From an uncultured Gemmatimonadaceae bacterium (GTDB lineage Bacteria; Gemmatimonadota; Gemmatimonadetes; Gemmatimonadales; Gemmatimonadaceae): a DNA stretch of 64,000 bases. Positions within the stretch are counted from its first letter, which is position 1. Each line of letters starts with the position of its first letter. The stretch is from positions 640,001 through 704,000 of the forward strand of contig CAWAGQ010000004.1 of the NCBI GenBank assembly GCA_963781585.1, written 5' to 3'. Shown one piece after another: positions 10,201-32,691 of this stretch. Under the pieces are notes generated by a model. The model made no database searches, was not told where the DNA came from, and saw only the letters and a program-made list of their open reading frames with translations. Made by a program: the position numbers and the translations under genes.

Positions 10201-10204
10201 TGGG

Positions 10205-13675: not shown

Positions 13676-15147
13676 CTCGTCCTCCCCCGAACGAATTCCA
13701 CAAAGGTACCCACTGGCACGCCGGTGGGTCCGCGCGGAATGATGACGAGATCCGTCTCGCTGTAGGCCGTCCCTGCCACGTCGAGGTGCACCCACGGATA
13801 GTCCACGAACTCCTGGAGGAACTTGGCGGCCGTAATGGTGCCGGCGGCGCGTCCGCCGGTGTTCTTGACGTCAGCCACGTCCGACTTGATGAGCTCCCGG
13901 TACTCGTCCCACAGGGGGAGTTGCCACGCCGGTTCGCTTGCCCGGCCGGCGGCGCTCACCACCTCGCGCACCAGACGGTCGTCACCGCCTAACGCGCCGG
14001 TTGCGGCGCTGCCGAGGGCCACGACGCAGGCGCCGGTCAGGGTGGCCGCATCGATCACCGCCTCCGGCTTGAAGCGCTTCACGTAGGTGAGCAGGTCGGC
14101 CAGCACCAGCCGGCCTTCGGCGTCGGTATTGATGATCTCGATGGTGCGACCCGAGCTGGCCGTCACCACGTCGCCCGGCTTGACGGCGGTGCCCGACGGC
14201 ATGTTGGTCGTGGCGCCGAACACGCCGACGACGTTCGCGCGGAGTCCGAGGCGCGCAATCGCTTCCATCGCCCCGATCACGCCCGCCGCGCCGCACATGT
14301 CGAACTTCATGAATTCCATGCGATCGGCCGGCTTGATGGAGATGCCTCCCGTATCGAAGCAGAGTCCCTTCCCCACCAGCACAATCGGTCTGGCGTCCTT
14401 CCTGCCCTTCCGGTATTCCAGCGTCACCAAGCGGGGCTCCTGCGGTGTGCCCTGGGCGACCGCGAGAAACGAGCCCATCTTCTCGCGCTCCATTTCCTTG
14501 CGACCGAGCACTGTAACCTGCATCCGGTGGCGCTTGCCGATGTCGCGAGCCACGTCAGCCAGGAGATCGGGGGTGCAGAGATTCCCCGGCATCATCGCGA
14601 GACGCCTGGCCACCGCGTATCCCGACCCGAGCGCCAGCGCCGCGGCCAGCCCCCGCCGCGCGCGGGCGGCGTCGGCCACCAGAATGGTGGCCGCCGTGAG
14701 CGGTGCGCGGCGTGACTCGTCAGGCGGCGGAGTCCTGAGGTCGTTGTATTCCCAGCTGCCGAGCTGCACTCCCACTCCCACCCCTTCCACACCGCGCGCG
14801 TCCAGGCGCCCACCCCAGACGGTCATCGATCCCACCCCCATTCGTTGCGCCTGGCGCGCGGCCAGCGTGGCCGCGCGGCGCAGCGCCAGCCCCACGTCCT
14901 TCGGAGTGCCGATCCCGACCAGCAGCAGCCGCCGGGCCCGGCCCTCGCGTCCGCTGAGGTGCAGGGTCTCGTCGCGTTCGCCGCGGAAGTCGCCGCGCTG
15001 CAGCGTCTGCGACAACAGCCCGTCCGTTGCGGCGTCGAGCGGTCGCAGAGCAGGAGGAAGCCGACGTGATGCGGGGAGCAAGAGCACCAGAAGCGGTGTC
15101 GCGACGCTGGTGACGTCGGACGACCGAACTTCGAGCGAGAGGGGCAT
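13672..15147 (-). CDS. pepA: leucyl aminopeptidase (M17)
   Basis: LVGKGLCFDTGGISIKP, MKFDMCGAA, NTDAEGRLVLAD, ATLTGA, HLDVAGTA. Confidence 0.95.
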   Translation of the reverse strand: MPLSLEVRSSDVTSVATPLLVLLLPASRRLPPALRPLDAATDGLLSQTLQRGDFRGERDETLHLSGREGRARRLLLVGIGTPKDVGLALRRAATLAARQAQRMGVGSMTVWGGRLDARGVEGVGVGVQLGSWEYNDLRTPPPDESRRAPLTAATILVADAARARRGLAAALALGSGYAVARRLAMMPGNLCTPDLLADVARDIGKRHRMQVTVLGRKEMEREKMGSFLAVAQGTPQEPRLVTLEYRKGRKDARPIVLVGKGLCFDTGGISIKPADRMEFMKFDMCGAAGVIGAMEAIARLGLRANVVGVFGATTNMPSGTAVKPGDVVTASSGRTIEIINTDAEGRLVLADLLTYVKRFKPEAVIDAATLTGACVVALGSAATGALGGDDRLVREVVSAAGRASEPAWQLPLWDEYRELIKSDVADVKNTGGRAAGTITAAKFLQEFVDYPWVHLDVAGTAYSETDLVIIPRGPTGVPVGTFVEFVRGRTS

Positions 15148-15264
15148 GAGTGGTCCGGGAGGTGAAAGGGTGCGCGCGGCCCGCACGGAACAGGTCGCAG
15201 CGCGGCGGGCTGCGTTCGGCGGTGGCGAAAGCTAGAGGCCTCGGCGAACGACTTCTAGGTCGGA

Positions 15265-16233
15265 TCACACCACCCGATCAGGTGGCTCGCTCCCATCCAG
15301 GAAGGCCGCGATGTTCGCAAGGGCGCGATGGCCCATCGCCGAGCGCGACTCTGTCGTGGCGCTGCCCAGGTGCGGCAGCGCGACGACGTTGTCGAGGGCC
15401 AAGAGCGCGGGATCGACTGCCGGTTCGCGCTCGAACACGTCGAGCGCGGCACCTGCGATGGTGCCGTTTCGGAGGGCCGTTGCCAGCGCGCGTTCGTCGA
15501 CCACGTCGCCCCGGCTGGTGTTGATCAGGAAGGCCGTGGGGCGCATCTGTTCCAGGCGGCGCCCGTCGATCAGGTGATGGGTGTCGGGGTTTGCCGGGCA
15601 GTGGAGCGACACGAAATCCGATTGGGCGAGCAGGTCATCGAGGCTACATCGCTCGGCGCCGAGCTCGCGAACGAGGGTGTCGGGCGCGTCGTGCCGCGTA
15701 TGGTACAGCACGCGCATCCCGAAGCCGCGATCGGCGCGCAGGGCCACCGCGCGGCCGATCCGACCGAACCCAACGATCCCGATGGTCCGACCCGAGACGC
15801 GCGTGCCTAACAAGTAGGTCGGACGCCACCCGGTCCAGCGGCCCGCCCGGAGGTCGCGCTCGCCATCCCGGAACCGCCGTGCCACTGCCAGCAGCAGGAG
15901 CATCGTGAGATCGGCGGTGTCTTCGGTGAGCACGCCGGGGGTATTGGTCACGACCAGGCCGGCATCGCGGGCGGCATCGAGCGCGATGTTGTCGACGCCC
16001 GCGCCGAAGTTGGCCAGGAGTCGCGCCCGGAAAGGCGTGCTCTTCAGAACGGCTGCGGTCATCTGATCGGACACTGTGCACAGGACCACATCCGCTTCGT
16101 GCAGGGCCGCGATCAGCTCGTCAGGCGTGAACGCATGATCGTCGGGATTGAGCCGGGCGTCGTACAGTAAGTGCAGCTCGTGCTCGACGGGCGCGGGCAG
16201 GCGTCGCGTGGCGATGACGGTCGGCTGCGGCAT
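15265..16233 (-). CDS. D-2-hydroxyacid (glyoxylate/D-glycerate) dehydrogenase
   Basis: GAGVDNI, TNTPGVLTEDTADL, GIVGFGRIG, INTSRGDVVDE, LDVFEREP, PHLGSAT. Confidence 0.92.
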   Translation of the reverse strand: MPQPTVIATRRLPAPVEHELHLLYDARLNPDDHAFTPDELIAALHEADVVLCTVSDQMTAAVLKSTPFRARLLANFGAGVDNIALDAARDAGLVVTNTPGVLTEDTADLTMLLLLAVARRFRDGERDLRAGRWTGWRPTYLLGTRVSGRTIGIVGFGRIGRAVALRADRGFGMRVLYHTRHDAPDTLVRELGAERCSLDDLLAQSDFVSLHCPANPDTHHLIDGRRLEQMRPTAFLINTSRGDVVDERALATALRNGTIAGAALDVFEREPAVDPALLALDNVVALPHLGSATTESRSAMGHRALANIAAFLDGSEPPDRVV

Positions 16234-16481
16234 GTGGAACAACCTATCGACGTGGGGTCGGGAGCTGGCGACTGACGCGCCGCGTCGATCGGCCAACCCG
16301 CTTCACGGCATCAGCTTGTTCGCATGTCCTGGCGCGCGTCCTTCTGTCAATCTCTGCGGTGCGGTTCCGAATCAAACTGGCCGACGGGGACAAGTCCCTG
16401 TGTCGCAACGAAGCAACACTCTTACCCGCCACTTCTCGACTGCGAACATGGTCGCCATGTTTACGCCGATCTTCTGGATCG

Positions 16482-16567
16482 CCTTCCGTTAAAGGGCAAC
16501 CCGTCCGCGAGGACGGTGCGCAAAGCGCGGAGTCTCATCCCCGAGACGGTCCCGCTACCGACGAAGG
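16482..16567 (+). ncRNA. cyclic di-GMP-I (GEMM-I) riboswitch
   Basis: AAAGGGCAAC-CCGTCC-GCGA-GGACGG-TGCGCAAAGC-GCGG...CCCGC-TACCG, closed by CCTTCCGT/ACGAAGG; matches GEMM-I layout (P2 GNRA loop, CGCAAAGC junction, UACCG); ends 54 nt before the next ATG. Confidence 0.8.
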
Positions 16568-16621
16568 ACCCCAACCAACGCCTGGTCTGGGACGACTCCA
16601 CTCTTCGGGAGGTAGACGCAC

Positions 16622-17494
16622 ATGTTTCCCCAACATCTGGCGCGCGCATCGCTCGCCATTCTCTCGCTGGCTGCGCTCGCGGCCTGTGCCGACGGTCCGA
16701 CCGGCACATCGACGAGTCGGGTTCTGGTCCAAACTCCAGCCGCGGCCATCCAAACGCCGGGCGGCGGCGAGCTCTGGGTGTGCAAGGCAGGCAATACGGC
16801 CGGCACGTTCCACTTCGCCATCTCGTACTCGCACAAGTCGGGTCCCGGATCAGCGGTCCCGTCGAACCTCGCGTTGACGTCAACAGATGTCGATGTCGGC
16901 AGCTGCGTCGAGGTGGCGAGTTCTCCCGTGACCGGCTCAGACGTCTACCTCGCGTCGATCGTGGAGACGGGGCAGACGAACTGGGCCCTGTCCGCGGTCA
17001 CCGCTATCAAGGGAAATGGGTCCGACGTCACGGCCTCGCTCACCATCAATCTCGGGACCCTCACGGCGAGCGGCGCCCGACTGGGCAACGACCGCGGCAC
17101 GACGGTTGTCTTCACCAACACGTTCACCCCGCCGACCGTAACGCCGGAAGGCTGCTCGCCGGGCTACTACAAGAAGCACCTCCAGCCGGGCAACGACCAA
17201 CTCCTGGGCGACATCTTTTCCAGCACGCCGGGCGCACTGGCAGGCTACACGCTCCAGGACGCGCTGCACTTCGAAGGTGGTCCAACCCTGACCGACAAGG
17301 AAAAGATCCTGCTCCGGCAGGCGGCGGCCGGATACTTCAACATCGGGTGGCTCGGCGCCCCGCCGTACCCGCTGTCGCTCACGGACCTGCAGAACCTCGT
17401 CAATGACGCGCTGGACACTGGCAATGCGACGACGATACTGAACGTGAAGGACCAGATCGCCGGCGACAACAATCTGGAAGGGCCGAAGTGCTGA
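16622..17494 (+). CDS. secreted lipoprotein, hypothetical surface protein
   Basis: GGAGG RBS; lipobox LAACADG; Thr/Ser-rich beta region, then a GCSPGYYKKH...LLRQAAAGYFN...YP domain. Confidence 0.75.
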   Translation: MFPQHLARASLAILSLAALAACADGPTGTSTSRVLVQTPAAAIQTPGGGELWVCKAGNTAGTFHFAISYSHKSGPGSAVPSNLALTSTDVDVGSCVEVASSPVTGSDVYLASIVETGQTNWALSAVTAIKGNGSDVTASLTINLGTLTASGARLGNDRGTTVVFTNTFTPPTVTPEGCSPGYYKKHLQPGNDQLLGDIFSSTPGALAGYTLQDALHFEGGPTLTDKEKILLRQAAAGYFNIGWLGAPPYPLSLTDLQNLVNDALDTGNATTILNVKDQIAGDNNLEGPKC

Positions 17495-17547
17495 CCTGAG
17501 GTCGCGGATCCAGCCGCGCCACAGCGCGGCTGGTGTGGTGGATGTGC

Positions 17548-17580
17548 GAAGGGCCCTCCTCGGAGGGCCCTTCTGCTTTG
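17548..17580 (+). terminator. intrinsic terminator-like hairpin after the lipoprotein gene
   Basis: GAAGGGCCCTC-CTCG-GAGGGCCCTTC (11-bp stem) followed by TGCTTT. Confidence 0.7.
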
Positions 17581-17733
17581 CTACGCACCCGCGTCTGGCG
17601 ACCTGATGAAGGCGTGGTCCATCGCACCGGCAAGACTTCTGGCACCGCGGCATAAGCGACGATCATTCCCCACCGGCGGCCCCTTGGGTGCGCCGATCGT
17701 CCGCCTGCGCGCCTAACGCTCGGTCGAAATGAG

Positions 17734-17789
17734 TGCCCAGGACGAGACTCGAACTCGTAAGGGCCGAAGCCCGGCGGATTTTGAGTCCG
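17734..17789 (-). repeat. att site: displaced 3' part of tRNA-Leu
   Basis: TGCCCAGGACGAGACTCGAACTCGTAAGGGCCGAAGCCCGGCGGATTTTGAGTCCG, identical to 32608-32663. Confidence 0.97.
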
Positions 17790-17901
17790 AACAACGACGG
17801 GTGCGGTGTTTGCCGGTGTTCGCCGATGTTGTTGTGTGAGCGACCGTTAGGCACTTCGGTTCATGTGCTGCGGGAAGCATGTTTGACGATGTTTTGCGGT
17901 G

Positions 17902-17934
17902 GTTCTAGCACAGTTCTAGCACAGTTCTAGCACA
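17902..17934 (+). repeat. three tandem 11-bp repeats GTTCTAGCACA, probable integrase arm-type sites
   Basis: Exact 3x repeat ~110 bp inside the att site; same motif 2x at 32522-32542 near the other end. Confidence 0.8.
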
Positions 17935-17951
17935 ATCAACCAGGAAGGCCA

Positions 17952-18977
17952 GTGCACACGACACCTGATCTGGAGCTGTTGCGCTCTGTTGGAAGCGGCC
18001 AAGTCTGGGCCATCGACCCCGATCGGTTGGAGGCCGTGCTCGGCCTTGCCACGCTCCGCGGTGCGCAGGCCGGACCGGAGCGCCGAGGCGTGTTGGCCCC
18101 GCGCGCTCCGCTCGTTACGGGCGGCGTCGCCGTGCTGCCGATGCATGGCATCCTCGTGCATCGCGCGTCGCCGCTCGCGAACCCGCTCGGTGCGGTGACA
18201 TCCACCGAAGCGGTGGGCCGGTCGTTGGACGACCTGCTCTCCCACGGGACGGAGACCATTGTGCTGGAGGTGGACTCGCCCGGCGGGGAATACGACGGCG
18301 TTCCAGAACTTGCGGACAAGGTATTTCACGCGCGGAGCCGGGCGCGCATCATCGCCGTGGCGGATAGCCTGGCGACGGCTGGCGCGTACGTCGTGGCTGC
18401 GGCGGCTGGTGAACTGGTGGTGAGTCCGTCGGCGGTCGTGGGCGGGCTCGGCGTCTTCACCATGCACGATGACTTCTCGGCGATGTTCGAACGGGTCGGG
18501 CTCACACGGACGGTGGTGCGGGCGCCAGCCTCCAAGGCCGAAGGCGCGGGGAATCTCCCGCTCAGCGCGGCGGCCCGCACGGCGCTCCGGGCGACCGTGC
18601 AGACGGTGTACGCGACATTAGTGGAGTCCGTGGCGCGCGGCCGGGCCGTCACGCCCGCAAGGGTTCGCGACGGGTTCGGCCAGGGGCGTACGGTCATGTC
18701 AGAGCGCGCCGTGCGAGAGGGCATGGCCGATCGCGTGGCCACGCTCGAAAGCGTCGTGCGCGCGTATCAGCGGAGCGCGCCGCCTCTTGGCCGGAACGCC
18801 TTCCGGGCGCCCGCGGAGTCCCCGCCGTTAGATGCTGATGCGCCTGGCGCATGGATCCGCTGCGATGCCGACGACGCCCCTGATCCATTTGCGGTAGAGT
18901 GGGATCGGTTCTATCGGCCGCGCGACGGAGGGAACGCCGCGGTACTTCGTCGGCGGCTCGAGTTGGAAACCGACTGA
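17952..18977 (+). CDS. S49-family (SppA/phage head protease-like) protein, predicted catalytically inactive
   Basis: WAI, GVAVLPMHGIL, LEVDSPGG, SKAEG, VARGR, FGQGR, GMADRVATLE; the ASAAY and GSIGV motifs read TAGAY and GGLGV. Confidence 0.85.
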   Translation: MHTTPDLELLRSVGSGQVWAIDPDRLEAVLGLATLRGAQAGPERRGVLAPRAPLVTGGVAVLPMHGILVHRASPLANPLGAVTSTEAVGRSLDDLLSHGTETIVLEVDSPGGEYDGVPELADKVFHARSRARIIAVADSLATAGAYVVAAAAGELVVSPSAVVGGLGVFTMHDDFSAMFERVGLTRTVVRAPASKAEGAGNLPLSAAARTALRATVQTVYATLVESVARGRAVTPARVRDGFGQGRTVMSERAVREGMADRVATLESVVRAYQRSAPPLGRNAFRAPAESPPLDADAPGAWIRCDADDAPDPFAVEWDRFYRPRDGGNAAVLRRRLELETD

Positions 18978-19032
18978 TATGCTCTATGCCGCGTCGTCCG
19001 AACAAGCCGCCTGACGAAGCTTCGCGATGGTT

Positions 19033-19140
19033 AGGGCACAGAAAGGGCACAGTCATCCAGGAGGGCCATGTGCACATGACACGCGATTTCGAGCTGTTGC
19101 GCTGCGTCGGGACGCGGCCAAGCCTGGGCGATCGACACCA
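19033..19140 (+). pseudogene. degenerate second copy of element-end repeats plus the 5' end of an S49-like gene
   Basis: AGGGCACAG x2 at 11-bp period, then CATCCAGGAGGGCCATGTGCACATGACACGCGATTTCGAGCTGTTGCGCTG..., which aligns with 17936-18020 and carries a frameshift. Confidence 0.7.
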
Positions 19141-19256
19141 CGCCGTTGCTAGAGGCGCACGGCGGCGCGCTGTCGGCTGACATGCTGCCCGAGTCTAGCC
19201 TTACCACTGCTGACGGGCTATTGTCTCGTCCCTCCCTGAGCCCGAGGAATGAGAGC

Positions 19257-19697
19257 TTGAGAATCGCGCTAGCCGCCGTATGTGACTACGCAATAATGGA
19301 CCAAAGCGGCAAACTGAGCCTCCTTGGGTTATTCGATGAGTTGCGAGCCGTCTCCTTCCCGGTGGCGCATCCGCGGATGTTTGTATGTCTCCGGATCCAG
19401 TGCGAGCCGATTGAGGCTAACACTCAGCACAGGTTGCAGATACGCTTGCAGGACGCTGATGGGAACCTTGTCTTGCCGGAGGTATCCACGCAATTCACAG
19501 TGCCGGATCGGCGTGCCGATCAGCCACATATGGCCGTCCAACTTGTACTAGAGATGGGTGGCGTTCGCTTCCCGCGGGCCGGCGAGTACTCTTTCGAAGT
19601 GGCCATCGATGGCTCGCATGTTCAGACCCTTGCGATTCGTGTCCAGCAGTTCACCCCAGGAGGTCCCCAAGGCGGCCAGCGTCCGAAATTGCGCTAG
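19257..19697 (+). CDS. DUF6941-like beta-sandwich protein
   Basis: AAVCDYAIMDQSGKLSLLGLFD...FPVAHPRM...GVRFPRAGEYSFEVAIDG; TTG start after GAGG. Confidence 0.7.
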   Translation: MRIALAAVCDYAIMDQSGKLSLLGLFDELRAVSFPVAHPRMFVCLRIQCEPIEANTQHRLQIRLQDADGNLVLPEVSTQFTVPDRRADQPHMAVQLVLEMGGVRFPRAGEYSFEVAIDGSHVQTLAIRVQQFTPGGPQGGQRPKLR

Positions 19698-19700
19698 ACG

Positions 19701-20009
19701 ATGGCGCGCCACGTGCCGGGCAGGGCTTGGAAACTTTATGCGCGGATGTTGAACAGTCGTGCGGGTTGGGGACAGCGCGACTTCCACAAGCTGTACAAGG
19801 GCTTCGGATTCGAGTGTCGGGAAGGACGCGATCGGGTCTATTTCCACCCCGATCATCGCGGTGTGATTCCGATAGCGATGGTTGCAAGACATAATGAACT
19901 ATCAAAGGCATATACCGACGACGCCATCGAGCGCGTCGGCCGGCTCATCGCCTTAGAGCAATTGACGCAGGAGAAAATACCAAATGAGTACGATGATGTT
20001 CACGGATGA
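19701..20009 (+). CDS. HicA-like toxin
   Basis: W...DFHKLYKGFGFECREG...YFHPD...VARHNELSKAY pattern; precedes a HicB-like gene. Confidence 0.6.
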   Translation: MARHVPGRAWKLYARMLNSRAGWGQRDFHKLYKGFGFECREGRDRVYFHPDHRGVIPIAMVARHNELSKAYTDDAIERVGRLIALEQLTQEKIPNEYDDVHG

Positions 20010-20322
20010 CTCGATCACCGCCGTTCAGGTGAACGTTGACAATGTTGGTCGGAAGGTGTGGTGGGAGGAGACCCTTCCGAGTGGCGCGCAAGTCTGGGTG
20101 GCGCGTGACCTCGATCTACCTGGCTGCATCGTTCAGGAGGGCTCTGCGCCCGCAGCACTTGCGGCCCTAGAAGATGCGAGGCTGCACTATCGTGCTGTGA
20201 TGGCTGAAATTGCCCAACCCTCAGACGCTCCCGACGCGTTGCTTCCAACTAGCACCAGCGAGACATCGAGTGCCATACCGACAAAACTCTTCAGCTATCG
20301 GGATTTGCAGCCAGTAGGCTAA
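19984..20322 (+). CDS. HicB-like antitoxin with low-complexity C-terminal tail
   Basis: WVARDLDLPGCIVQEGSAPAALAALEDARLHY, the HicB N-terminal signature. Confidence 0.7.
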   Translation: MSTMMFTDDSITAVQVNVDNVGRKVWWEETLPSGAQVWVARDLDLPGCIVQEGSAPAALAALEDARLHYRAVMAEIAQPSDAPDALLPTSTSETSSAIPTKLFSYRDLQPVG

Positions 20323-20542
20323 ATCGTTAGGGAGCTCGGTGACAGCTAGCGCGGATTTGATCGCTCGACCACCGCGCGCAGGCTCTCAGTGAGTTCCCGG
20401 AGCTGCTCGAGCGCTTTGGCCGTTTTCCCGGTTTTGCGACATAGCGCCACCAGACGAGCCGCGTGAGCTCGTCGAGGGCTGCGCGGTCCGGGGCCGCGCT
20501 CACGAGGCGACCGAGCGCCGCGGCGCGGGGCGGTCGTGAGCT

Positions 20543-20719
20543 TCAATTGTCTCGGACCAGGCGCGCGCGTTTCAGCGTGATCAGGAGGACGAGCGCGGTG
20601 CTGTCCTCCCCTTCGGGATAGTAGTGGTCGAGATCGGCCCTGAGGCGCGCGAGCGCCGCCGGATCATCGGCGAGCCGGATGCGGCGCAGGTAAAGGCCGC
20701 CAGCTCGAGCGCGGGTCAC
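20543..20719 (-). CDS. small hypothetical protein
   Basis: GTG start overlapping the stop of 20716..21303 (GTGA coupling); TRARAGGLYLRRIRLADD... Confidence 0.35.
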   Translation of the reverse strand: MTRARAGGLYLRRIRLADDPAALARLRADLDHYYPEGEDSTALVLLITLKRARLVRDN

Positions 20720-21303
20720 TGGATAGTTGACCAGGCGGCTTTGTTGATGCAGCGCGCGTAGACGACGGAGAGGGCTCCGTCCTCGTCTGGTCCCCCGGGC
20801 CACATGGGTACGACGGCGCTCCCTTTGAAGAGAAGGCTGTCGAGTCGCCCGATCGGTAAGAATTGCGCGCGTCCTTCGCCATATCTCCACGTTCCATCGC
20901 GCCAACGGAAAACCATGGAAAGACGTGCCCAGAACGGCGCATGACCATCCGGCTTGGCCAGCAGAACGCCAATGCTGTCAGGCTCCGGTGAAAAAACCAT
21001 CTCAGCGATCTCGAACGAGACGGGCGCTGAGTACGGCGTCACCAGGCTCGCCGTCTTCTGCACGTCGAAAAGCACATTCTGAATAGCACATTGGACGCGG
21101 CCGAACTTGCCGCGATACTCGCTCGTCGAATCGAATTGCCAAATCACGCGCGCCTTCTGTACGGAGTCGATCTTCCGAGCGAGTGCCAGTTCGAAGTCCT
21201 TCGCGATCCGCGCTTCATTTACCGCCTGCGCGGGCAGATGCGTGGCCCCGAGCACGAGAGCGGCGAAGCCACATCTGCAAGCTTTGGACACGGTAACCTC
21301 CAT
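20716..21303 (-). CDS. hypothetical secreted protein
   Basis: Signal peptide-like ..AALVLGATHLPAQA; 195 aa; no family recognised. Confidence 0.55.
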   Translation of the reverse strand: MEVTVSKACRCGFAALVLGATHLPAQAVNEARIAKDFELALARKIDSVQKARVIWQFDSTSEYRGKFGRVQCAIQNVLFDVQKTASLVTPYSAPVSFEIAEMVFSPEPDSIGVLLAKPDGHAPFWARLSMVFRWRDGTWRYGEGRAQFLPIGRLDSLLFKGSAVVPMWPGGPDEDGALSVVYARCINKAAWSTIQ

Positions 21304-21559
21304 TACGATTCTGGCGACGCCGGCAGCTAACCGGCAGCTAAATGCGCCGGCAGTAGGCGGCGAAACTCTGCGCGGTCATCTTGCCCGCCGCGTCGGAACG
21401 CGGCTCAGAAGGAGACAAGGGTCGCTCGATCTCATTGCGAGCTGAGGCGCCTGGCTCCGAATCCGCTGCCGCGTCAACAGGGCCGCTGGTGCGGTCCCGG
21501 GGGCATTCGACAGCGTCAGCCCTGAGGAGCCATAGCGCCACGAATTTCCCAATACGCAT

Positions 21560-22291
21560 TTACGCGGTCACCGATTCGGTGTCGTGAGACCGCCGCTCTG
21601 ATGGAGGGTCGGCTTGCCAGCGTTCCTGCCATGCGCGGAGCATCTCCTCTAGGAACGCCGTCGCCCGGTGCCGAAATACCGAGTTGAAAGACGCTTCAAG
21701 CTCAATTTGTTGTTCTTGCTGCGTGAGCGTTAGCCCAACGTCCCTCTGCTCGAGACGCCGCACGATTTTTCTGCGATTCTCTCGCACCTCGCCGCGAGCA
21801 TGGATGAGGAGATTTCGAACTTCTCCGTACTCCAATAGCTCGTTCCACTGCGGCTCGGCTGGAGACGCGAGCGCGGCTACCTTGGTGAGGAATGTTCTCG
21901 CTTGGCGGATGCCAGTTCCACGCAGGTCCGTTCGCGCGACGCGCTGCGGCGCAAAGTAATGAACCAGGTCGCAAGTTCGAATCAGGCCGTGCTCCAACGT
22001 GCCGTAGGCCATGAGGAAGAGCGCGGCACGCTGGATCTGCGGGAAAGCCCAATCTGCCATCCCGTGTTCCAGTAAGAGCTCCGTGTATTCGCTCGCCGAC
22101 CGCTTCGTGCCCTCCACGAGGGCAGCCCGCGCCGTAGCAGAAGCGTTGTTCATGGCGACTTCCGACAGCTCGTGCAACCGCTGGACGTGGTACAGGCGCT
22201 CAAGCGTGGTCGATATTGCGAGCACGCCGTAGTCGCGAACGAGTTGAAAAGGTGCGCGCGATTTAGCAGGCGGTCGCTGCTCGGGGGTCAT
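21560..22291 (-). CDS. HEPN-like domain protein, putative RNase/defence effector
   Basis: All-helical character; YGTLEHGL...C and the RxxxxH motif VRNLLIHARG; ATGA-coupled to the XRE gene. Confidence 0.65.
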   Translation of the reverse strand: MTPEQRPPAKSRAPFQLVRDYGVLAISTTLERLYHVQRLHELSEVAMNNASATARAALVEGTKRSASEYTELLLEHGMADWAFPQIQRAALFLMAYGTLEHGLIRTCDLVHYFAPQRVARTDLRGTGIRQARTFLTKVAALASPAEPQWNELLEYGEVRNLLIHARGEVRENRRKIVRRLEQRDVGLTLTQQEQQIELEASFNSVFRHRATAFLEEMLRAWQERWQADPPSERRSHDTESVTA

Positions 22292-22512
22292 CTCCCCCGC
22301 TTCCGCTTCCCATCGGTGGCGAGCAGTTCGCCGGGCTGAACGCCCAGGGCCGCGGCGAGGCGTTCCAGCACGTCGAGATCGATCCGGGACGTCGCGCCGC
22401 GCTCAATCTGAGAGATGGTGGCCTGGCGGACGCCGGCGAGCTCCGCGAGCGCCTCCTGCGTGAGGCCGCGCGCCGCGCGAAGATCCCGAAGCCGGAACCG
22501 GACCGGTGACAT
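22288..22512 (-). CDS. XRE-family HTH transcriptional regulator
   Basis: RLRDLRAARGLTQEALAELAGVRQATISQIERG...LERLAAALGVQPGELL. Confidence 0.92.
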   Translation of the reverse strand: MSPVRFRLRDLRAARGLTQEALAELAGVRQATISQIERGATSRIDLDVLERLAAALGVQPGELLATDGKRKRGR

Positions 22513-22519
22513 GCCGGCC

Positions 22520-22569
22520 AATATACGCTGAGGCGGATATTGACGGCAATACGCCCTGGCGTATATCCT
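22520..22569. promoter_or_regulatory. divergent overlapping promoters with two related palindromic operators
   Basis: O1 AATATACGC-TGAG-GCGGATATT (22520-22541); O2 ATACGCC-CT-GGCGTAT (22549-22564); + strand TTGACG-N18-TATCCT; - strand TTGCCG-N18-TATATT ending 7 nt before the XRE ATG. Confidence 0.65.
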
Positions 22570-22601
22570 TCAGGCACCACACTTATCATGGAGGCGAGAC
22601 C

Positions 22602-22883
22602 ATGCCAGCACGGATGACCGCGAACACGATACCCACGCCGGGACCGAGCGCGGCGTTTCTCGAAGGGCTGAGGCTCATCGAGACGATCTACAAGGAGTAT
22701 GGCCGTGCGTGGATCGCGCGGGAGATCGGCACGAAGGCCAGCGTCATCGCGGACTGGTACGCCGGGAAGCGGACGCCACTACCGAAACACGTTGACGGTC
22801 TGCTGGACCTAATGCTTTCCGCGTACCCATCAGGCTCCCGGCGGGCGGAAGAGTGCATTGCCGCCGCCCGGGAGTCGGGTTGA
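22602..22883 (+). CDS. Cro-like HTH protein
   Basis: GGAGG RBS; YGRAWIAREIGTKASVIADWYAGKRTP HTH pattern; divergent from the XRE gene. Confidence 0.65.
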   Translation: MPARMTANTIPTPGPSAAFLEGLRLIETIYKEYGRAWIAREIGTKASVIADWYAGKRTPLPKHVDGLLDLMLSAYPSGSRRAEECIAAARESG

Positions 22884-23097
22884 CAGCATCGGGAATCCGG
22901 TGAGGGGATGGATCGAGCGCCGAGGGCGTTCGCGCTCTGCGCCGTCGGTAGGTTCTTGCTGATCCGGGCGGCGCTCCGGATTATACAGACCGGTGCGAAA
23001 CCATTCTTGCAGGTCGGCGCGAAGGCGTTGCGCCGATCTGCACGCACGCTATAAGGCTGGTCGGCCGACAGGTTTCCGGACGAACGATTCAAAGTAT

Positions 23098-23104
23098 GTT
23101 ATGC
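23098..23104 (+). other. integron core site GTTATGC starting cassette 1 (attI-like position)
   Basis: GTTATGCGG is the reverse complement of CCGCATAAC at the cassette end; no attC hairpin upstream of it. Confidence 0.7.
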
Positions 23105-23129
23105 GGACTGAGTAAGGACGAAGACCACG

Positions 23130-24002
23130 ATGACCTCACTGAAGTACTCGAAGCCGGAACGTATCTGGTTGAAGGACCATCCTGATTTGGATGAGCGCTG
23201 GCTTCAGGACCGGATCGGTGAGGATCCGGCACTCCTCGGCCTTGGAGACTTGGTCCTGAAGGATCGAGAGCGACCGCAGCCTCGAGCTGGGCGGCTCGAC
23301 CTGCTACTTCAAGATGCGGAGACCAACAAGCGCTACGAGGTCGAGGTGCAGCTCGGCAAGACCGATGAGGCGCACATCATCCGCACCATCGAGTACTGGG
23401 ACATCGAGCGGAAACGATATCCGCAATATGACCACACGGCGGTGATCGTCGCCGAGGATATTACCGGCCGTTTCCTTAACGTCATCAGCCTATTCAACGG
23501 TTCCATTCCCCTTGTCGCCATTCAGATGAGCGCGGTCCGGCTCGGCGATTCTGTATCGTTGATCTGTTCGAAGGTTCTCGACGAGATGCGCCTTGGCCTC
23601 GTGGACGAGGACGAGGAAGTCCAGGCAGCAGCGGACCGGTCGTATTGGGAGGCTCGAGCAAGCAAACACACCCTGGCGATGGCGGACGAAATGCTCGAAG
23701 TGGTTCGTGCTTTCGATCCGCAGCTCGAGCTCAAGTACAACAAGTTCTATATCGGCCTGGCCAAGGGTGGTCAGCCAAACAACTTTGTCATCTTCCGTCC
23801 GAAGAAGGACTGGCTTCGGCTTGAAGTGCGCCTCGACCGCTCAGACGAGACGCAAGCACAGCTCGATGGATCGGGTCTCGACGTCATGGACTACGATTCC
23901 CGATGGGGGCGGTACAGAATCCGCCTCGCCAAGGGCGACACTACGAAGCACAGGGATTTCCTGGCGGCGCTCATGACGAAGGCATTCGCAGGGACCGCAT
24001 AA
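23130..24002 (+). CDS. NucS/PD-(D/E)xK-like nuclease with DUF5655-like C-terminal domain (integron cassette 1)
   Basis: ERWLQDRI...GRLDLL...YEVEVQLGKTDEAHIIRTIEYW; C-terminal KYNKFYIGL...NFVIFRP; stop codon lies inside the attC R'' box. Confidence 0.75.
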   Translation: MTSLKYSKPERIWLKDHPDLDERWLQDRIGEDPALLGLGDLVLKDRERPQPRAGRLDLLLQDAETNKRYEVEVQLGKTDEAHIIRTIEYWDIERKRYPQYDHTAVIVAEDITGRFLNVISLFNGSIPLVAIQMSAVRLGDSVSLICSKVLDEMRLGLVDEDEEVQAAADRSYWEARASKHTLAMADEMLEVVRAFDPQLELKYNKFYIGLAKGGQPNNFVIFRPKKDWLRLEVRLDRSDETQAQLDGSGLDVMDYDSRWGRYRIRLAKGDTTKHRDFLAALMTKAFAGTA

Positions 24003-24072: not shown

Positions 24073-24096
24073 CGAAAACGCAAAGGGGAGGACTGA

Positions 24097-24759: not shown

Positions 24760-24774
24760 GTCGTAGCCGTTTCG

Positions 24775-25188: not shown

Positions 25189-26079
25189 TCAGTCGGCGGG
25201 CGCCGGGCGGAGACGACCTGGTCTCAGGCGCATCCGCATAATTGCGTAATTTTGTCCCTTGTGCTCCTGAAACTTAGGTTGGGTCGGCAGCCGTTGGAGT
25301 CGCCGCTCGAGTTGCTCATGCTGCCGTGGGGTAACGAGCACCCACTGGTTAAGTGGCCACGCCTTCCATGCGCTGCTCCCCCATTGTGGCATTTCCCCGC
25401 GGCTCACCTTTTCGGCCGCCACGCTCCCGATGAAATCGGCGAGCGTGCGAAATGGTCTCGCATCTTTGCGCCGCTGCTGATTACGCCGCGGCGGCCGCGC
25501 GAAGGACGGCAACGGCGCCAACTCCAGATGATGAGCGGTCAAGGCGCACAGATCCCCAGCGATCGCCGCATACGGTGATCGAGATTCGGTCATCAGCCGA
25601 TGAAGTTCCCGTAGCTGCTCGTACAGGGCTCCGTCCCGGCTTTTGAGCACCTCAACTAACCGCTCATGGCTCCCGCGGTACTTTCGGACGATTTCCGCCA
25701 ACAGATCGTCGGGCCACGGAACAGAGTAGTCGGCCAACGCGCGCACAATAGGACTTTGTCCGCGGCTCAATGTCTGGACAATGAAATCACGAAGGGTCGC
25801 TGGCAAGGATCGGCGGTCCGCTGCGGCGCTGAGCGACTCAGGGCCGTTCCCCAAGAGTAGCCACGTCGGGGAGCGGTGATACTCCGTGCAGATCCGAAGA
25901 ATCGTGCCTACATCAGGGGTCGCCGGGTCGCGCTTTCGCAACCACTTCCCGACCGTTTCGCTGGTCGAGCCGATGGCTTCCGCAAACGCCGCCGCGCCGC
26001 CGGCGTCCTCGACCACCAAATGCAACCGGTGGCTGATGGCACGGGAATCTGACGGCTCCGGTTTCGATCGACCCAACAA
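25189..26079 (-). CDS. CI-like repressor: N-terminal HTH plus unknown C-terminal region
   Basis: GGAAAFAEAIGSTSETVGKWL...PDVGTILRICTEYHRSPTWLLLGNGP; divergent from the rightward operon; exact start uncertain. Confidence 0.7.
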   Translation of the reverse strand: MLGRSKPEPSDSRAISHRLHLVVEDAGGAAAFAEAIGSTSETVGKWLRKRDPATPDVGTILRICTEYHRSPTWLLLGNGPESLSAAADRRSLPATLRDFIVQTLSRGQSPIVRALADYSVPWPDDLLAEIVRKYRGSHERLVEVLKSRDGALYEQLRELHRLMTESRSPYAAIAGDLCALTAHHLELAPLPSFARPPRRNQQRRKDARPFRTLADFIGSVAAEKVSRGEMPQWGSSAWKAWPLNQWVLVTPRQHEQLERRLQRLPTQPKFQEHKGQNYAIMRMRLRPGRLRPAPAD

Positions 26080-27144: not shown

Positions 27145-28452
27145 GTGCAATCTCGCGTCGATGCGTACGAGCCGCAGAATGACGAAGAGCTCGAGGACGT
27201 CCTCGGGTCGCCAGAGGGGAACGGCACGAAACCGCATCCGGCGAATGAGCCCGGACTCCCTTCCTTCGTGCGACTGTCCGAGGTGGCGCCTGACATCGCG
27301 ATCGAGTGGGACGCCGAGGACCTCTTTGTGCACGGAGAACCTGCGGTTCTGGCCGGGAGAGGGGCCACGTACAAGACGTCGACGATCCTCGCGATGGCCG
27401 GCGCCGTCGCGACGGGACATCGCGTCTTCGGGCGGTTCCATGTGCCCACGCCTGGTCCGTTCTGCTACGTCTCAGGCGAGGATCCGCCCGAGGTGATCCG
27501 CAACCGCCTCGAGGCCATTTGCCACGGCCACGGCTATAACGTGGCCGACGCGTTCGAGAACGTGCACGTGCTCGCGCTCTCCGGCATCGACCTCGCGGAA
27601 GAACGTTGGCGTCGACACGTCAGGGATGAAGTGCGCGCCATCGGCGCGCGGATGCTCGTGCTGGATCCGCTCGCCGAAGTGGACAGCGGCGAGGAGAACA
27701 ACAACGACGACCGCCGGCGCCTCGTACGCGCGATCCGGTGGTTCGGCGCGGAGACCGACGCGACGGTCCTGGTGGCGCACCACTTCCGCAAGAGCGCCGA
27801 GGGCGGAGACAAAGGTGATCTGATCCGGGGCGGTAATGCGCTCCCAAACGCGTCCCGGCAGACGTACGCCTTGGAACGCCTCGACGACGGGAGCGTGACC
27901 GTGGAGTGCGTGAAGTTCTCGCGGGCTGCGCGGCGACCACCCTTCGTGCTGCGGCCGATCATAGAGACCAAACCGGGCAACGAAGCGGTCTGGCTGAGTG
28001 CCCGGTTTGAATACGCCACGGCCTCCGAGGCCAAGTTCGACCGGGCGGAGGAATTCGTGCTCGAGCGCCTCACGCTCGGGGTCCGATTGAGCACCTCAGA
28101 CCTGAAGCTCGAGGCCAAGGGGACCGGTGTTTCCGGTGCCGATATTGCCCGGGCGCTGCGGGTGCTCGAGATGCGCCGGCTCATCAGTTTCGAGGCCGGG
28201 GAGAAGAATGCGAAGCTCTGGGGTCTGGTTGCCGGGCAAGCTGGGCAACCAGAGAATGTGCTTGCCCGGCAAACAGGCAGCTTGCCGGGCAACCAGAATA
28301 AGGCCGGTTCTGCTTGCCTTGCCCCCTTTAGGGGGGCAAGCAGAAACCGGCCGCCTAACGAGCACCGGCAACCAGACCCGCCCCCGAACCACGGCGAGGC
28401 CTGGGAGCCGCCTCTCGACGATTCGCAGGCAGCGATGTGGGGCGGCGCATGA
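27145..28452 (+). CDS. AAA_25/RepA-like helicase
   Basis: Walker A-like LAGRGATYKTS, YVSGED, Walker B MLVLDPL, VAHHFRK, IRGGNAL; wHTH-like C-terminal part. Confidence 0.85.
   Translation: MQSRVDAYEPQNDEELEDVLGSPEGNGTKPHPANEPGLPSFVRLSEVAPDIAIEWDAEDLFVHGEPAVLAGRGATYKTSTILAMAGAVATGHRVFGRFHVPTPGPFCYVSGEDPPEVIRNRLEAICHGHGYNVADAFENVHVLALSGIDLAEERWRRHVRDEVRAIGARMLVLDPLAEVDSGEENNNDDRRRLVRAIRWFGAETDATVLVAHHFRKSAEGGDKGDLIRGGNALPNASRQTYALERLDDGSVTVECVKFSRAARRPPFVLRPIIETKPGNEAVWLSARFEYATASEAKFDRAEEFVLERLTLGVRLSTSDLKLEAKGTGVSGADIARALRVLEMRRLISFEAGEKNAKLWGLVAGQAGQPENVLARQTGSLPGNQNKAGSACLAPFRGASRNRPPNEHRQPDPPPNHGEAWEPPLDDSQAAMWGGA
28229..28351. repeat. iteron-like TTGCC(G/C)GGCAA cluster with a large inverted repeat, putative replication origin
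   Basis: Copies at 28229, 28262 and 28282; GCCGGTTCTGCTTGCC...TTGCCCCC-TTTA-GGGGGGCAAGCAGAAACCGGC. Confidence 0.55.
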
Positions 28453-29973: not shown

Positions 29974-30168
29974 GGCCGCGCGTCCGGCAGGCCGGAGTCG
30001 GCCTTCGCAGCGCATGGCGCGGGAACTCGCAGACCCACCCCGGGGTCGGTCCGATCTCTGTGATCGGCCGCGTTAGGGACCGTGGCCAGCCCTCAGCGCG
30101 CCCTGGGCAGGTTTTGCGAGCCGAAAGTGCCCGGCAGGACCTTCGCAGAACGAGCGGAGGCTGAAACG

Positions 30169-30657
30169 ATGCGTGGTCCGCCGAAGAAACCGACCGCCGT
30201 CAAGCTGATCGAGGGCACCTTCCGCCGGGATCGTGCGCCGAGGCGCGAGCCGCGTCCGGTGCCAGGCGTTCCCCGGCGCCCCCGCTGGCTCGATGCCCGC
30301 GGCGCGACGAAATGGCGACAGCTCGTGGCCATCCTCGGTCCAATGCACGTGGTGACCGTGGCCGACGGCGATGCGCTAGCGCTGGCTGCGGAGGCGTTCT
30401 CGCGATTCCTGGCGGCCAGGGATGCGGTCCGACAGTTCGGCACGGTCTACAGTTCGGCGACCCCGGCCGGGGGCACGATCGTCCGGCCCCGTCCGGAGTG
30501 CGCGATGGCGACGAGCACGTGGCGGGACTATCTGCGCGCGCTGCAGGAGTTCGGCCTCACGCCGGCGGCACGCGCCCGGGTGGAAGCGCGAGACGACGGC
30601 GGGAGCGAGACCGACCGGTTCCTGTTCGATGAGTCACGCCGCCGGCGTCGAGCGTAG
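30169..30657 (+). CDS. terS: phage terminase small subunit, P27 family
   Basis: GGAGG RBS; MRGPPKKPTAVKLIEGT, PRWLD...KW, D..ALA...EA, RPRPE, EFGLTPAARAR. Confidence 0.9.
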   Translation: MRGPPKKPTAVKLIEGTFRRDRAPRREPRPVPGVPRRPRWLDARGATKWRQLVAILGPMHVVTVADGDALALAAEAFSRFLAARDAVRQFGTVYSSATPAGGTIVRPRPECAMATSTWRDYLRALQEFGLTPAARARVEARDDGGSETDRFLFDESRRRRRA

Positions 30658-30666: not shown

Positions 30667-30807
30667 ATGACAACATCACAGCAGCATGGCGATGAGCTGA
30701 TGCTCTTGCGGGCCAGGTACGACGCGCTGGCCGCCGAGGCGGTGCGGCAGGCGATTCTCTCCGGCGGCTCGCTCAAGATCGATGTGGAGGGCATCACGGA
30801 GCCGTGA
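30667..30807 (+). CDS. small hypothetical protein, 46 aa (absent from ORF track)
   Basis: AGGAG RBS; MTTSQQHGDELMLLRARYDALAAEAVRQAILSGGSLKIDVEGITEP; stop overlaps the next GTG. Confidence 0.5.
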   Translation: MTTSQQHGDELMLLRARYDALAAEAVRQAILSGGSLKIDVEGITEP

Positions 30808-31142
30808 CGTCTCCTCTTGCGGGCCAACTCGAGGCGCTCATCGAGCGCGCGACGGCAGAGGAATTGCCGACGCTCGCGGGAGCGTTGGCGACCGCGCTCG
30901 CGAGCGTGCTGGCGCGCGTATCGACGCCGGCCGCAGGGCCGACCCTTTCCCGGCCGCACACAACCTCTGACGGGCTCCTGGACGTGCAGCAGGCGGCCGA
31001 GCGGCTCGGGGTAGCGCCGACGTGGCTCTACCGACATGCCAGCAAGCTCCCCTTCACCCGGAAACTCGGGCACAAGACGCTCCGCTTTGACGCCCGCGGC
31101 CTCGATCGCTGGGCCGCGACGCGCGCCACGTCGCATGCTTGA
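30804..31142 (+). CDS. excisionase-like HTH_17 protein
   Basis: LLDVQQAAERLGVAPTWLYRHASKLPFTRKLGHKTLRFDARGLDRW. Confidence 0.85.
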   Translation: MTSPLAGQLEALIERATAEELPTLAGALATALASVLARVSTPAAGPTLSRPHTTSDGLLDVQQAAERLGVAPTWLYRHASKLPFTRKLGHKTLRFDARGLDRWAATRATSHA

Positions 31143-31177: not shown

Positions 31178-31423
31178 ATGAACGCCGTCACTCGCACCAT
31201 GCAGCGGATCCTCGCTGACTCGCCGGTGAGCCTTCGGGAGATTGCCCGGCGGTGCGGGGTGTCGCATGTGCAGCTCGCACGGATCGTGAATGGTGAACGC
31301 AACGCGACGCCGGCCGTGGCCGCCGCAGTGGCGACGGCGCTGGAGACACTCGGGGCCGACTGTACCGCGCGTGCGAAGCGGGTGCGGCGTTCCTTGGCCA
31401 CATCAGGCAAGGGGGAGCGATGA
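31178..31423 (+). CDS. XRE-like HTH protein
   Basis: SLREIARRCGVSHVQLARIVNGERNATP; ATGA-coupled to the integrase. Confidence 0.75.
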   Translation: MNAVTRTMQRILADSPVSLREIARRCGVSHVQLARIVNGERNATPAVAAAVATALETLGADCTARAKRVRRSLATSGKGER

Positions 31424-32520
31424 GAGACGCGACGAAGAAGCGCGCCGAGCGTGGCGCCGGAGGGCTCTACCAGCGCGGCGGTCTGTGGTGGATTCGCTAT
31501 AGCTATCGGGGAAAGCAACTCCGCGAGTCGAGCGGCTCCGACGTGCGGAACGACGCCGTGAAGCTCTTGCGGCGGCGTCTGGCCGAGATGGGATCCGGAA
31601 AGCTCATCGGTCCGGACGCCGAGCGCACGTCGTTCGACGACCTGGCCGACATGGTGATTGCTGACTATCGGCTCAATGGCCGGCGCTCGACTCGACGGGC
31701 CACCGAGGCGCTTGCGCGGCTTCGCGGCTTCTTTGCGTTCGCGCGCGTGCCTGACGTGACGAGCGATCGCATCGCCCGCTACATCACACAACGGCAAGAG
31801 GACAGCGCCGCGGCCGCGACGATCCGATACGAGCTGTCGATGCTCAAGCGCGCCTTCACGCTCGGCATGCGCGCCGGCAAGGCCGCGACGCGCCCCTACA
31901 TCCCCACGGTGGCCGTCGATAACGCTCGCAAGGGATTCTTTGAGCCCGCAGACTTCGAGGCCGTCGAGACGCACTTGCCGGCGCCGCTGCAGCCGCTCAT
32001 GCGCTTCCTCTACCTCACCGGCTGGCGCGCGGGTGAAGCGCTCGGGCTCACCTGGGCGGGCGTTGATTTTTCGGCCGGCGTCTTGCGGCTCGAACCAGGC
32101 GTGACGAAGAATCGTGAGGGGCGGGAGTTTCCCTTTGCGGGCTTCCCTGCCCTGGCCGAGCTCCTCCGCGCACAGCGCGAGCATACGTCGGTGATCGAGC
32201 GGAAGCGACAGCGCATCATCGCGCACGTCTTCCATCGGAACGGCAAGCCGCTCCGGTCGTACAGCGGCGGATGGGACGCGGCGACGAAAGCGGTTGGGCT
32301 CGAGGGCCGGCTCGTGCACGACTTGCGGCGCACGGCGGTGCGGAACCTCGAGCGGGCCGGCGTCTCGCGGTCCGTGGCGATGAAACTGACGGGCCACAAG
32401 ACCGAGGCCGTGTACCGTCGTTATGCGATCACGTCCGCGGCCGATCTCTCCGAAGGCGTCGCGAAACTGGCGACGCTGCACGCGGGGCCAGCGAAGCGCA
32501 CGACGGCCGGCACCCGATGA
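31420..32520 (+). CDS. int: tyrosine integrase
   Basis: Arm-binding N-terminus (GLYQRGGLWWIRYSYRGK); catalytic TGWRAGE, TKN, HDLRR, GHKT, RRY; next to the tRNA att site. Confidence 0.96.
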   Translation: MRDATKKRAERGAGGLYQRGGLWWIRYSYRGKQLRESSGSDVRNDAVKLLRRRLAEMGSGKLIGPDAERTSFDDLADMVIADYRLNGRRSTRRATEALARLRGFFAFARVPDVTSDRIARYITQRQEDSAAAATIRYELSMLKRAFTLGMRAGKAATRPYIPTVAVDNARKGFFEPADFEAVETHLPAPLQPLMRFLYLTGWRAGEALGLTWAGVDFSAGVLRLEPGVTKNREGREFPFAGFPALAELLRAQREHTSVIERKRQRIIAHVFHRNGKPLRSYSGGWDAATKAVGLEGRLVHDLRRTAVRNLERAGVSRSVAMKLTGHKTEAVYRRYAITSAADLSEGVAKLATLHAGPAKRTTAGTR

Positions 32521-32521
32521 C

Positions 32522-32542
32522 TTCTAGCACAGTTCTAGCACA
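32522..32542 (+). repeat. two TTCTAGCACA arm-type repeats
   Basis: Same motif as 17902-17934, directly after the integrase stop. Confidence 0.8.
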
Positions 32543-32607
32543 ATTTCGCGATATTCACGCGTGGCAGCACTTCAGGTGACGGGCTCTAAGTCCTTATGCT
32601 GCAACGA

Positions 32608-32691
32608 TGCCCAGGACGAGACTCGAACTCGTAAGGGCCGAAGCCCGGCGGATTTTGAGTCCGCTGCGTCTACCAGTTCCGCCACCCGGGC
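32608..32691 (-). tRNA. tRNA-Leu(CAA); CCA not encoded
   Basis: GCCCGGG TGGCGGAACTGGTAGACGC A GCGGA-CTCAAAA-TCCGC, variable arm GGGC-TTCG-GCCC, T arm ACGAG-TTCGAGT-CTCGT, CCTGGGC-A. Confidence 0.97.

Follow-up and report, generated by a model that had tools for sequence, protein, structure and literature searches.

Why would a phage satellite carry a homologue of a head-maturation protease whose nucleophile serine is missing? The question is raised by a gene in a 64,000-nt stretch (hereafter the window, to which all coordinates refer) at positions 640,001 to 704,000 of contig CAWAGQ010000004.1, from an uncultured Gemmatimonadaceae bacterium. The gene occupies nucleotides 17952..18977 of the plus strand and, as judged from its open reading frame (ORF), profile matches, alignment, and structural model, encodes an S49/gpC-type head-maturation protease homologue of 341 amino acids, referred to here as P0001, in which the nucleophile Ser is absent. 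It lies inside a 14.9-kb satellite resembling the phage-inducible chromosomal islands (PICIs), integrated at a tRNA-Leu gene. The reading favored here, tentatively and at slightly less than even probability, is that P0001 is a noncatalytic gpC-type homologue in the core of the satellite, kept by selection as a capsid assembly factor and not as an enzyme.

Family membership and catalytic positions of P0001

P0001 belongs to the S49 family by homology: it scores above the curated cutoff of the profile, and its predicted fold resembles that of SppA. It matched the Pfam profile PF01343 (Peptidase_S49) with an E value of 5.4e−21 (75.6 bits against a cutoff of 24.9) and, over residues 10 to 276, PHROG_53 "head maturation protease" (E value, 3.1e−55). 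Translation gave a GTG start and 341 codons uninterrupted by a stop, and a Shine-Dalgarno-like AGGAAGG could be read from the sequence at 17942..17948 (plus strand), 3 nt upstream of the GTG. A preliminary description of this DNA had reported an intact 341-amino-acid ORF and a set of S49 motifs, all of which were found in the translation: DSPGG at residues 108 to 112, SKAEG at 194 to 198, VARGR at 227 to 231, and GMADRV at 257 to 262. The extreme C terminus of the protein is AVLRRRLELETD.

The AlphaFold2 model of P0001 had a mean predicted local distance difference test (pLDDT) score of 83, and the means of 10-residue blocks were mostly above 90 over residues 61 to 270. Toward the C terminus it shows a disordered linker (residues 280 to 325) and then a helix (residues 327 to 340). 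The best Foldseek matches of the model were the Bacillus subtilis SppA structures 4kwb and 3rst, with target-normalized template modeling scores of 0.82 to 0.85, and superposition on B. subtilis SppA gave a root mean square deviation of 2.0 Å across 219 columns. Many of the best representatives recovered from the protein library (P0072 to P0216) are fusions of 680 to 880 amino acids in which an S49 protease is joined with a coat protein of the HK97 type (PF05065 or PF25209); given such fusions among the closest relatives of P0001, the domain is tightly tied to coat assembly. In P0072, the S49 protease is fused to a further prohead protease domain, of the S78 type.

The register of the catalytic positions was set by pairwise HMMER alignments to SppA from B. 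subtilis (3rst and 4kwb) and Escherichia coli (3bez), and the assignments were compared with counts among homologues. Ala143 (codon GCT, 18378..18380, plus strand) pairs with the nucleophile Ser of "..maaSggyy.." in SppA, and Gly165 (codon GGG, 18444..18446, plus strand) pairs with the Ser of "..tGSlgv..", the GSIGV Ser position. Lys195 (18534..18536, plus strand), the retained general base, pairs with the Lys of the E. coli SppA N-terminal domain ("tyKsavep"). An alignment to SppA had been proposed in the preliminary description as the check on the two Ser positions, and both fell in register; the codons it gave were also correct, with GCG ACG GCT GGC GCG TAC encoding A141, T142, A143, G144, A145, and Y146, and the GGLGV sequence was recovered from GTG GGC GGG CTC GGC GTC (V163 to V168).

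Among homologues, in sets that may overlap, position 143 was Ser in 68 of 69 proteins from a word search, in all 149 of the best library representatives from an exhaustive HMMER search, in 88 of 89 inspected loci from IMG/VR and GTDB genome contigs, and in 80 of 80 metagenome loci. The exception among the inspected loci, L033, has a true Ala; L090 was also considered as a Ser-less copy and was rejected as an alignment shift. Lys was found at position 195 in 65 of 69 word search homologues and in 149 of 149 representatives. The corresponding counts for Ser at position 165 were 64 of 69 and 146 of 149, and Ala or Gly stands there in a few members that retain the nucleophile and are otherwise intact, so the S165G change alone is supportive and not decisive. 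The earlier claim that both catalytic serines are replaced thus held for the nucleophile, where P0001 has A143, and was overstated for the second Ser. Judged from the alignments, the loss of the nucleophile is real and far outside chance variation in the family. Further changes lie near the catalytic center, where A142T, S143A, A144G, W147V, S165G, I166L, and G192P were recorded. The feature that defines the enzymes, a nucleophile Ser within AAS(A/G)(A/G)YW, is missing, and by its sequence P0001 is a nonpeptidase homologue; with the nucleophile gone, proteolysis by P0001 is predicted to be absent.

A hydroxyl residue does occur one position before the canonical site, and the protein retains the Lys and an unbroken DSPGG loop, features that would suit a protease still working with another nucleophile, for example Thr142 or Ser139. 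The adjacent Thr had been named beforehand as the residue that could overturn the pseudo-enzyme proposal, but it is not in the nucleophile register: T142 pairs in all alignments with the Ala one position before the SppA nucleophile. Position 142 was Ala in 134 of the 149 representatives and Thr in only 2, both of which have Ser143. In the model, residue 142 is the last of a strand, and the helix that follows spans residues 143 to 150. Changes at the second Ser, W147, and G192 also count against a protease with a substitute nucleophile, which is judged very improbable.

Substitution pattern and other Ser-less copies

A head protease gene left over from a capsid-forming ancestor, or taken from a helper, could have lost its nucleophile after the capsid genes were gone, in which case P0001 would be a decaying relic. 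A pseudo-enzyme and a decaying copy can be distinguished by whether departures from conserved residues are clustered at the active site or spread evenly. The reference consisted of 214 homologues that keep the nucleophile, and the main setting took columns at 80% conservation and intervals of ±5 residues around S143, S165, and K195. P0001 deviated at 8 of the 17 conserved columns near the active site compared with 6 of 53 elsewhere (one-sided Fisher p = 0.0033), and over six combinations of interval and threshold, p ranged from 0.003 to 0.068. The count of 8 near the active site was above that of every one of the 214 active homologues (maximum, 7), while the count of 6 elsewhere was ordinary (mean, 4.85; standard deviation, 3.3); outside the active site, P0001 is as conserved as active members of the family. 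An earlier test on the 149 representatives gave 8 of 18 columns near the active site and 4 of 50 elsewhere at the 80% threshold (p = 0.0015), with p values of 0.02 and 0.016 at thresholds of 70% and 60%, respectively.

Since neutral decay should strike both classes of column alike, this pattern counts against a relic. The direction is clear in the sequence comparison: constraint appears to have gone from the catalytic center and to have been kept on the rest of the fold, and the clustering of changes at the active site fits a retained pseudo-enzyme better than free decay. Along a branch of ∼0.8 to 0.9 substitutions per site, no stop codon, frameshift, or domain-breaking indel has appeared. The fold is predicted with high confidence, and the terminal docking-type motif and the Shine-Dalgarno sequence are intact. 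The preliminary description had itself listed a copy that is only decaying as the outcome that would refute it; the substitution pattern disfavors that outcome, and simple decay keeps a substantial minority share of the probability.

Several observations weigh against selective retention and give decay that share. The intervals of the enrichment test were chosen by the analyst and the numbers are small, and in the test on the 149 representatives significance was lost at the strictest threshold (p = 0.28 at 90%). The terminal branch of P0001 is long, at 0.89 compared with a mean of 0.53 (standard deviation, 0.17), ranking 5th of 150, and the protein keeps 33 of 38 residues conserved at 90% or more, a tied minimum among the 150 sequences. 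The open frame of 341 codons says little about function; for a relic, it would be explained by recent decay and by the rarity of stop codons at 70% GC. A scan for promoters and terminators across 17600-20500 found none, including upstream of the P0001 gene.

P0001 is, moreover, a singleton whose nearest relatives are 39 to 47% identical, and no close relative shares its Ser-less state. The best nonself identity was 47% in a word-index search of 5.8 billion clustered proteins, and relatives found in an exhaustive search of 1.8 billion representatives were likewise at most 47% identical. IMG/VR yielded nine loci at 35 to 39% identity, 5 of 60 related genomes had matches at 27 to 35%, and all matches in 652 phage records were below 60% identical.

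Decay is also evident next door. The region upstream of the S49 gene, its Shine-Dalgarno sequence, and its first 28 codons recur as a ∼80%-identical duplicate at 19012..19150 (plus strand), identified by repeat search and alignments, in which a 1-nt insertion leaves a 36-amino-acid ORF running from the GTG at 19070 to the TGA at 19180. This frameshifted duplicate shows local rearrangement and decay at the S49 locus. Its ∼20% divergence implies that the 5′ end of the P0001 gene has been resident in the lineage of the element for a long time.

Two further Ser-less S49 homologues were identified. P0064, on a 1.4-kb contig, has A143, G165, and Q195 and has lost Ser143, Ser165, and Lys195 alike. 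The second, at L033 9998-10903 on a contig of an Acidobacteriota metagenome-assembled genome, has the motif CALAGAYW and keeps Ser165, Lys195, and an RRELE tail. Neither was sister to P0001 in either of two trees, between which the placement of P0001 itself was unstable; because they are not sisters, the three copies are, on the trees, independent and rare losses of the Ser, another point on the side of decay. L033 showed no active-site enrichment (3 of 17 columns near compared with 6 of 53 elsewhere). P0064 deviated at 9 of 17 columns near the active site and at 16 of 53 elsewhere, that is, throughout, and its enrichment was weak and dependent on the setting (p = 0.014 to 0.29), falling below 0.05 only at looser settings and not at ±5 residues with the 80% threshold. 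Both look like recent or advanced decay. Among the three Ser-less copies, clear active-site enrichment with ordinary conservation elsewhere was seen only in P0001. The 80 metagenome loci counted above came from a search using an alignment of the three proteins, which ran on patterns of the DSPGG type, and none of them was Ser-less.

The L033 gene sits in an island (4565-20125) next to a tRNA-Leu(taa). The island holds an integrase, fragments that resemble tape-measure proteins, and an excisionase-like gene, and the S49 gene lies ∼5 kb from the tRNA-Leu and the integrase. Coat, portal, and terminase genes were not recognized in the island, and an att repeat was not found in the available stretch. 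It looks like a prophage in decay, and as a setting for a Ser-less copy it likewise favors the relic explanation for P0001.

A possible part in helper head assembly

How a noncatalytic P0001 could serve the satellite is suggested by the parts of the protein that are kept. Besides the fold and the phage-specific N-terminal segment, these include the C-terminal helix (residues 327 to 340; 18930..18971, plus strand), for which block mean pLDDT values were 79 to 89 and which carries the RRxLxL motif of the family. A strict RRxLxL ending was found in 47 of 167 stand-alone homologues compared with 158 of 3,340 shuffled tails, and looser variants occur in many more. In HK97, the C-terminal tail of the prohead protease acts as a capsid-targeting signal. 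The RRxLxL helix of P0001 is a putative procapsid-docking determinant. A noncutting protein with this fold, N-terminal segment, and C-terminal helix should still be drawn into head assembly by the helper.

The closest counterparts are the lambda gpC-type proteases (PHROG_53 and PF01343), with which P0001 shares the homology over residues 10 to 276, the SppA-like fold, DSPGG, the Lys, the phage-specific N-terminal segment, and RRxLxL. It differs from them in the replacement of the nucleophile Ser by Ala and of the GSIGV Ser by Gly, and in being encoded by a satellite; the context of a gpC-type head module, with portal and major capsid genes beside the protease, was not found around the P0001 gene. 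Passages of PMC3224144 describe a lambda initiator complex built on interactions among the protease C, the Nu3 scaffold, the B portal, and the E coat protein. Passages of a 2026 preprint state that the S166A variant of lambda gpC loses activity and still binds a partner (10.64898/2026.10.06.757031).

On this model, P0001 would fold, and probably oligomerize, like the helper phage's own protease. Through the kept N-terminal segment and the RRxLxL helix, it would join the portal/protease/coat initiator of the helper or the procapsid interior and would compete there with the helper protease, such that maturation of helper heads may be lowered or redirected to the benefit of the satellite. The sequence cannot tell whether the net effect would be a block of helper maturation, a change in head size, or an adaptor function. 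We infer a role for P0001 in helper capsid assembly in this general sense. A more specific version, which we regard as rather unlikely as a whole, is that the satellite has turned a helper-type protease into a weapon or tool by killing the nucleophile and keeping the assembly determinants and the Lys. Such a protein would load into procapsids or mix into protease rings and block or retime maturation, or bias heads toward a 15-kb genome, and might be expressed only from the excised circle.

Satellites redirect helper capsids with scaffold-like or coat-like proteins, among them CpmB, Sid, TcaP, and Ccm. SaPI1 CpmB offers an analogy in that a satellite protein related in role to a head assembly protein of the helper would occupy the helper's binding site; it differs in having no sequence relation to P0001, which would derive from a protease and not from a scaffold and whose binding and size redirection are putative. 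CpmB competes with the scaffold of the helper, 80alpha, for a site on the coat protein, as given in part of Dearborn 2017 (PMC5644958). A dead factor derived from a protease would extend this repertoire by a new route, in which the satellite interferes with maturation. If true, this would be capsid hijacking by a pseudo-enzyme, a class not described for satellites, and P0001 would exemplify a viral pseudo-enzyme retained for the surfaces through which it binds.

The preliminary description had called the strategy one not recognized in described satellites. This stands in part. A literature search turned up no account of a satellite with a head protease that is catalytically dead, with incomplete coverage that did not extend to the supplements of PMC10085698, which may list PICI proteases. 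Capsid modification by PICIs, however, has already been postulated, and serine protease genes are said to occur in them occasionally, in passages of de Sousa et al. 2023 (PMC10085698); those passages do not discuss the catalytic state of the proteases.

The retained Lys allows a different kind of partnership. S49 rings form their active sites between subunits, and P0001 could coassemble with the helper protease, complete the sites of its neighbors, and recruit or retarget proteolysis, for example, to satellite-sized heads, without poisoning the ring. E. coli SppA provides a precedent of sorts: in the alignment, its N-terminal domain has Gln at the nucleophile position and Lys at the position of K195, and its C-terminal domain has the Ser and no Lys, in keeping with the S409/K209 dyad. 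A natural S49 domain with the Lys and without the Ser thus serves there as one half of an active site. That N-terminal domain is, like P0001, an S49 domain that lacks the nucleophile Ser and keeps the Lys, but it is fused in cis, within a membrane peptidase, to a domain that bears the Ser; P0001 is free-standing and of phage type. Lys195 is kept in P0001 and lost in P0064. One retained residue is nevertheless weak evidence, and G192P and the other changes beside the Lys may disturb the loop; a Lys-donating partner is judged improbable.

A role unrelated to capsids has also been considered, in which P0001 would bind a helper protein as a regulator or sensor or would act as a decoy to evade host defenses that sense prohead protease activity. 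Lambda gpC activates an enzyme of a cyclic oligonucleotide-based antiphage signaling system (CBASS) only through its protease activity, and S166A binds without activating it, as reported in passages of the same gpC study (10.64898/2026.10.06.757031). Protease-dead forms would, by that result, be immunologically silent binders. Defense system profiles, however, matched neither the S49 gene nor its direct neighbors, nothing links the gene to regulation, and the argument is one of pure analogy, which makes such a role slightly more improbable still than Lys donation.

The satellite element and its cargo

The element is bounded by att repeats. In a repeat search borne out by local alignment, the final 56 bp at the 3′ end of a tRNA-Leu were perfectly duplicated at 17734..17789 (the distal repeat, attL), which is 100% identical to 32608-32663; the tRNA-Leu (caa) itself, located by tRNA and repeat searches, lies at 32608..32691 on the minus strand, and its 3′ 56 nt form the proximal repeat. 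The start-to-start spacing is 14,874 bp. A repeat search also detected tandem 11-bp repeats of the TTCTAGCACAG type between att and the S49 gene (17892..17937, plus strand) and a second set between the integrase gene and att (32522..32545, plus strand). These are probably arm-type sites of the integrase, or alternatively sites for regulator binding. The 11-bp repeats recur at 19030-19053, within the duplicate, which thus includes the upstream repeats of the S49 gene, and a degenerate GGGCACAG form occurs alongside TTCTAGCACAG.

Other genes of the element were identified by profile searches. An HTH (helix-turn-helix) repressor-like regulator is encoded at 25189..26079 on the minus strand (PHROG 8, 4, and 2328, with a weak YdaS HTH match), and the following are on the plus strand. 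At 27145..28452 is a gene for an AAA_25 replicase/helicase-like protein (PF13481, 1.7e−31; PHROG 906 and 239), which matches the C-terminal parts of the primase/helicase PHROGs 906 and 239; a primase domain was not detected in it. The P27-family small terminase gene, terS, at 30082..30657 (PF05119 and TIGR01558) is the only terS in the genome. An HTH_17 AlpA/excisionase-like regulator, identified by a profile match and PHROG 66, is encoded at 30804..31142; a small HTH protein with a weak HigA-like match below the curated cutoff in the profile search, at 31178..31423; and a tyrosine integrase, at 31420..32520 (PHROG 1, 2.9e−45). The ORF of the HigA-like protein overlaps the start of the integrase by 4 nt, and a toxin partner was not seen. 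Taken together with the att repeats at the tRNA-Leu, this inventory bears out the earlier assignment to a satellite-like element. The statement that the element has no capsid gene also agreed with the profile searches, in which none of the tested ORFs of the element matched capsid, portal, large-terminase, tail, or lysis profiles.

The likeness to PICIs as characterized in passages of de Sousa et al. 2023 (PMC10085698) extends to the integrase, the AlpA-like and repressor-like regulators, a replicase-like protein, terS, a length of ∼15 kb, and a lack of matches to tail, holin, portal, and coat genes. The element differs in the codirectional arrangement of rep, terS, alpA, and int, in the position of the protease gene at the far end beside att, and in its high-GC bacterial host. 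Of the five core components given in those passages, four have counterparts here, with the AAA_25 protein as the candidate for the primase-replicase module, and for the fifth, "capsid morphogenesis," the Ser-less S49 gene is the only candidate; no ORF of the element matched a known capsid morphogenesis family. P0001 would thus be a testable candidate for the capsid morphogenesis slot of PICI-like elements in high-GC bacteria, whose satellites are barely explored.

The whole genome (5.7 Mb in 17 contigs; 93.5% complete, 7.2% contamination) was searched as well and contained no match to PF05065 or PF03864 coat proteins (HK97 and lambda E types, respectively), to the large terminase TerL, to a portal, to a second terS, or, with P0001 as the query, to another S49 protein. 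With no head gene matches in the genome, any helper must come from outside.

The P0001 gene, with a GC content of 0.70 and a third-codon-position GC content (GC3) of 0.79, is close to AAA_25, terS, and int in composition, whereas the cargo block at 19.1 to 26 kb has a GC content of 0.55 to 0.63 and a GC3 of 0.61 to 0.72. By this measure, the gene groups with the core of the satellite and apart from the cargo. In the excised circle, rep, terS, alpA, int, attP, and the S49 gene would follow one another on one strand, and P0001 could possibly be expressed by read-through from the rep-terS-int operon across attP after excision.

Relatives of the replicase were found in 3 of 200 genomes of the host family, at 34 to 40% identity; the two loci fetched, L013 and L014, have integrases and a primase-helicase and no S49 gene. 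The island at L014 6734-18346 (genome G144) combines an integrase with a distant replicase relative and a 288-amino-acid protein that matches only the C-terminal part of the large terminase, and may be another satellite-like element. Two small Ralstonia "phage" records with S49 matches (L011 and L012) were set aside because, as judged by ORF order and size only, they look like fragments of ordinary lambda-type head modules.

At the segment holding the duplicate, the high-GC core gives way to the low-GC cargo, which begins with a DUF6941 gene at 19182..19697 (plus strand), identified by a profile match, whose ATG lies 1 nt after the stop of the 36-amino-acid ORF, a spacing that would allow termination-reinitiation coupling. 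DUF6941 was matched in 361 of 401 genomes of the phylum of the host, a tally that includes four genomes flagged as unpublished (G356, G286, G008, and G259), which bear on no other result, with one to three matches in the genomes listed and two in the genome of the host itself. An extra copy of a near-universal host gene is thus carried as satellite cargo. A literature search on DUF6941 found no paper mentioning it.

The rest of the low-GC block (19100-26100) contains ORFs without known function on both strands, one of which (23130-24002) has weak matches to PDC-S11 and PDC-S18, which are PADLOC candidates, and to DUF5655; the block may be a region of defense or accessory cargo. On the other side of the element, the ∼1.4 kb before attL (16324-17733) holds overlapping ORFs without a Pfam or PHROG match, and the last recognizable host gene before attL encodes a 2-hydroxyacid dehydrogenase (15265-16296).

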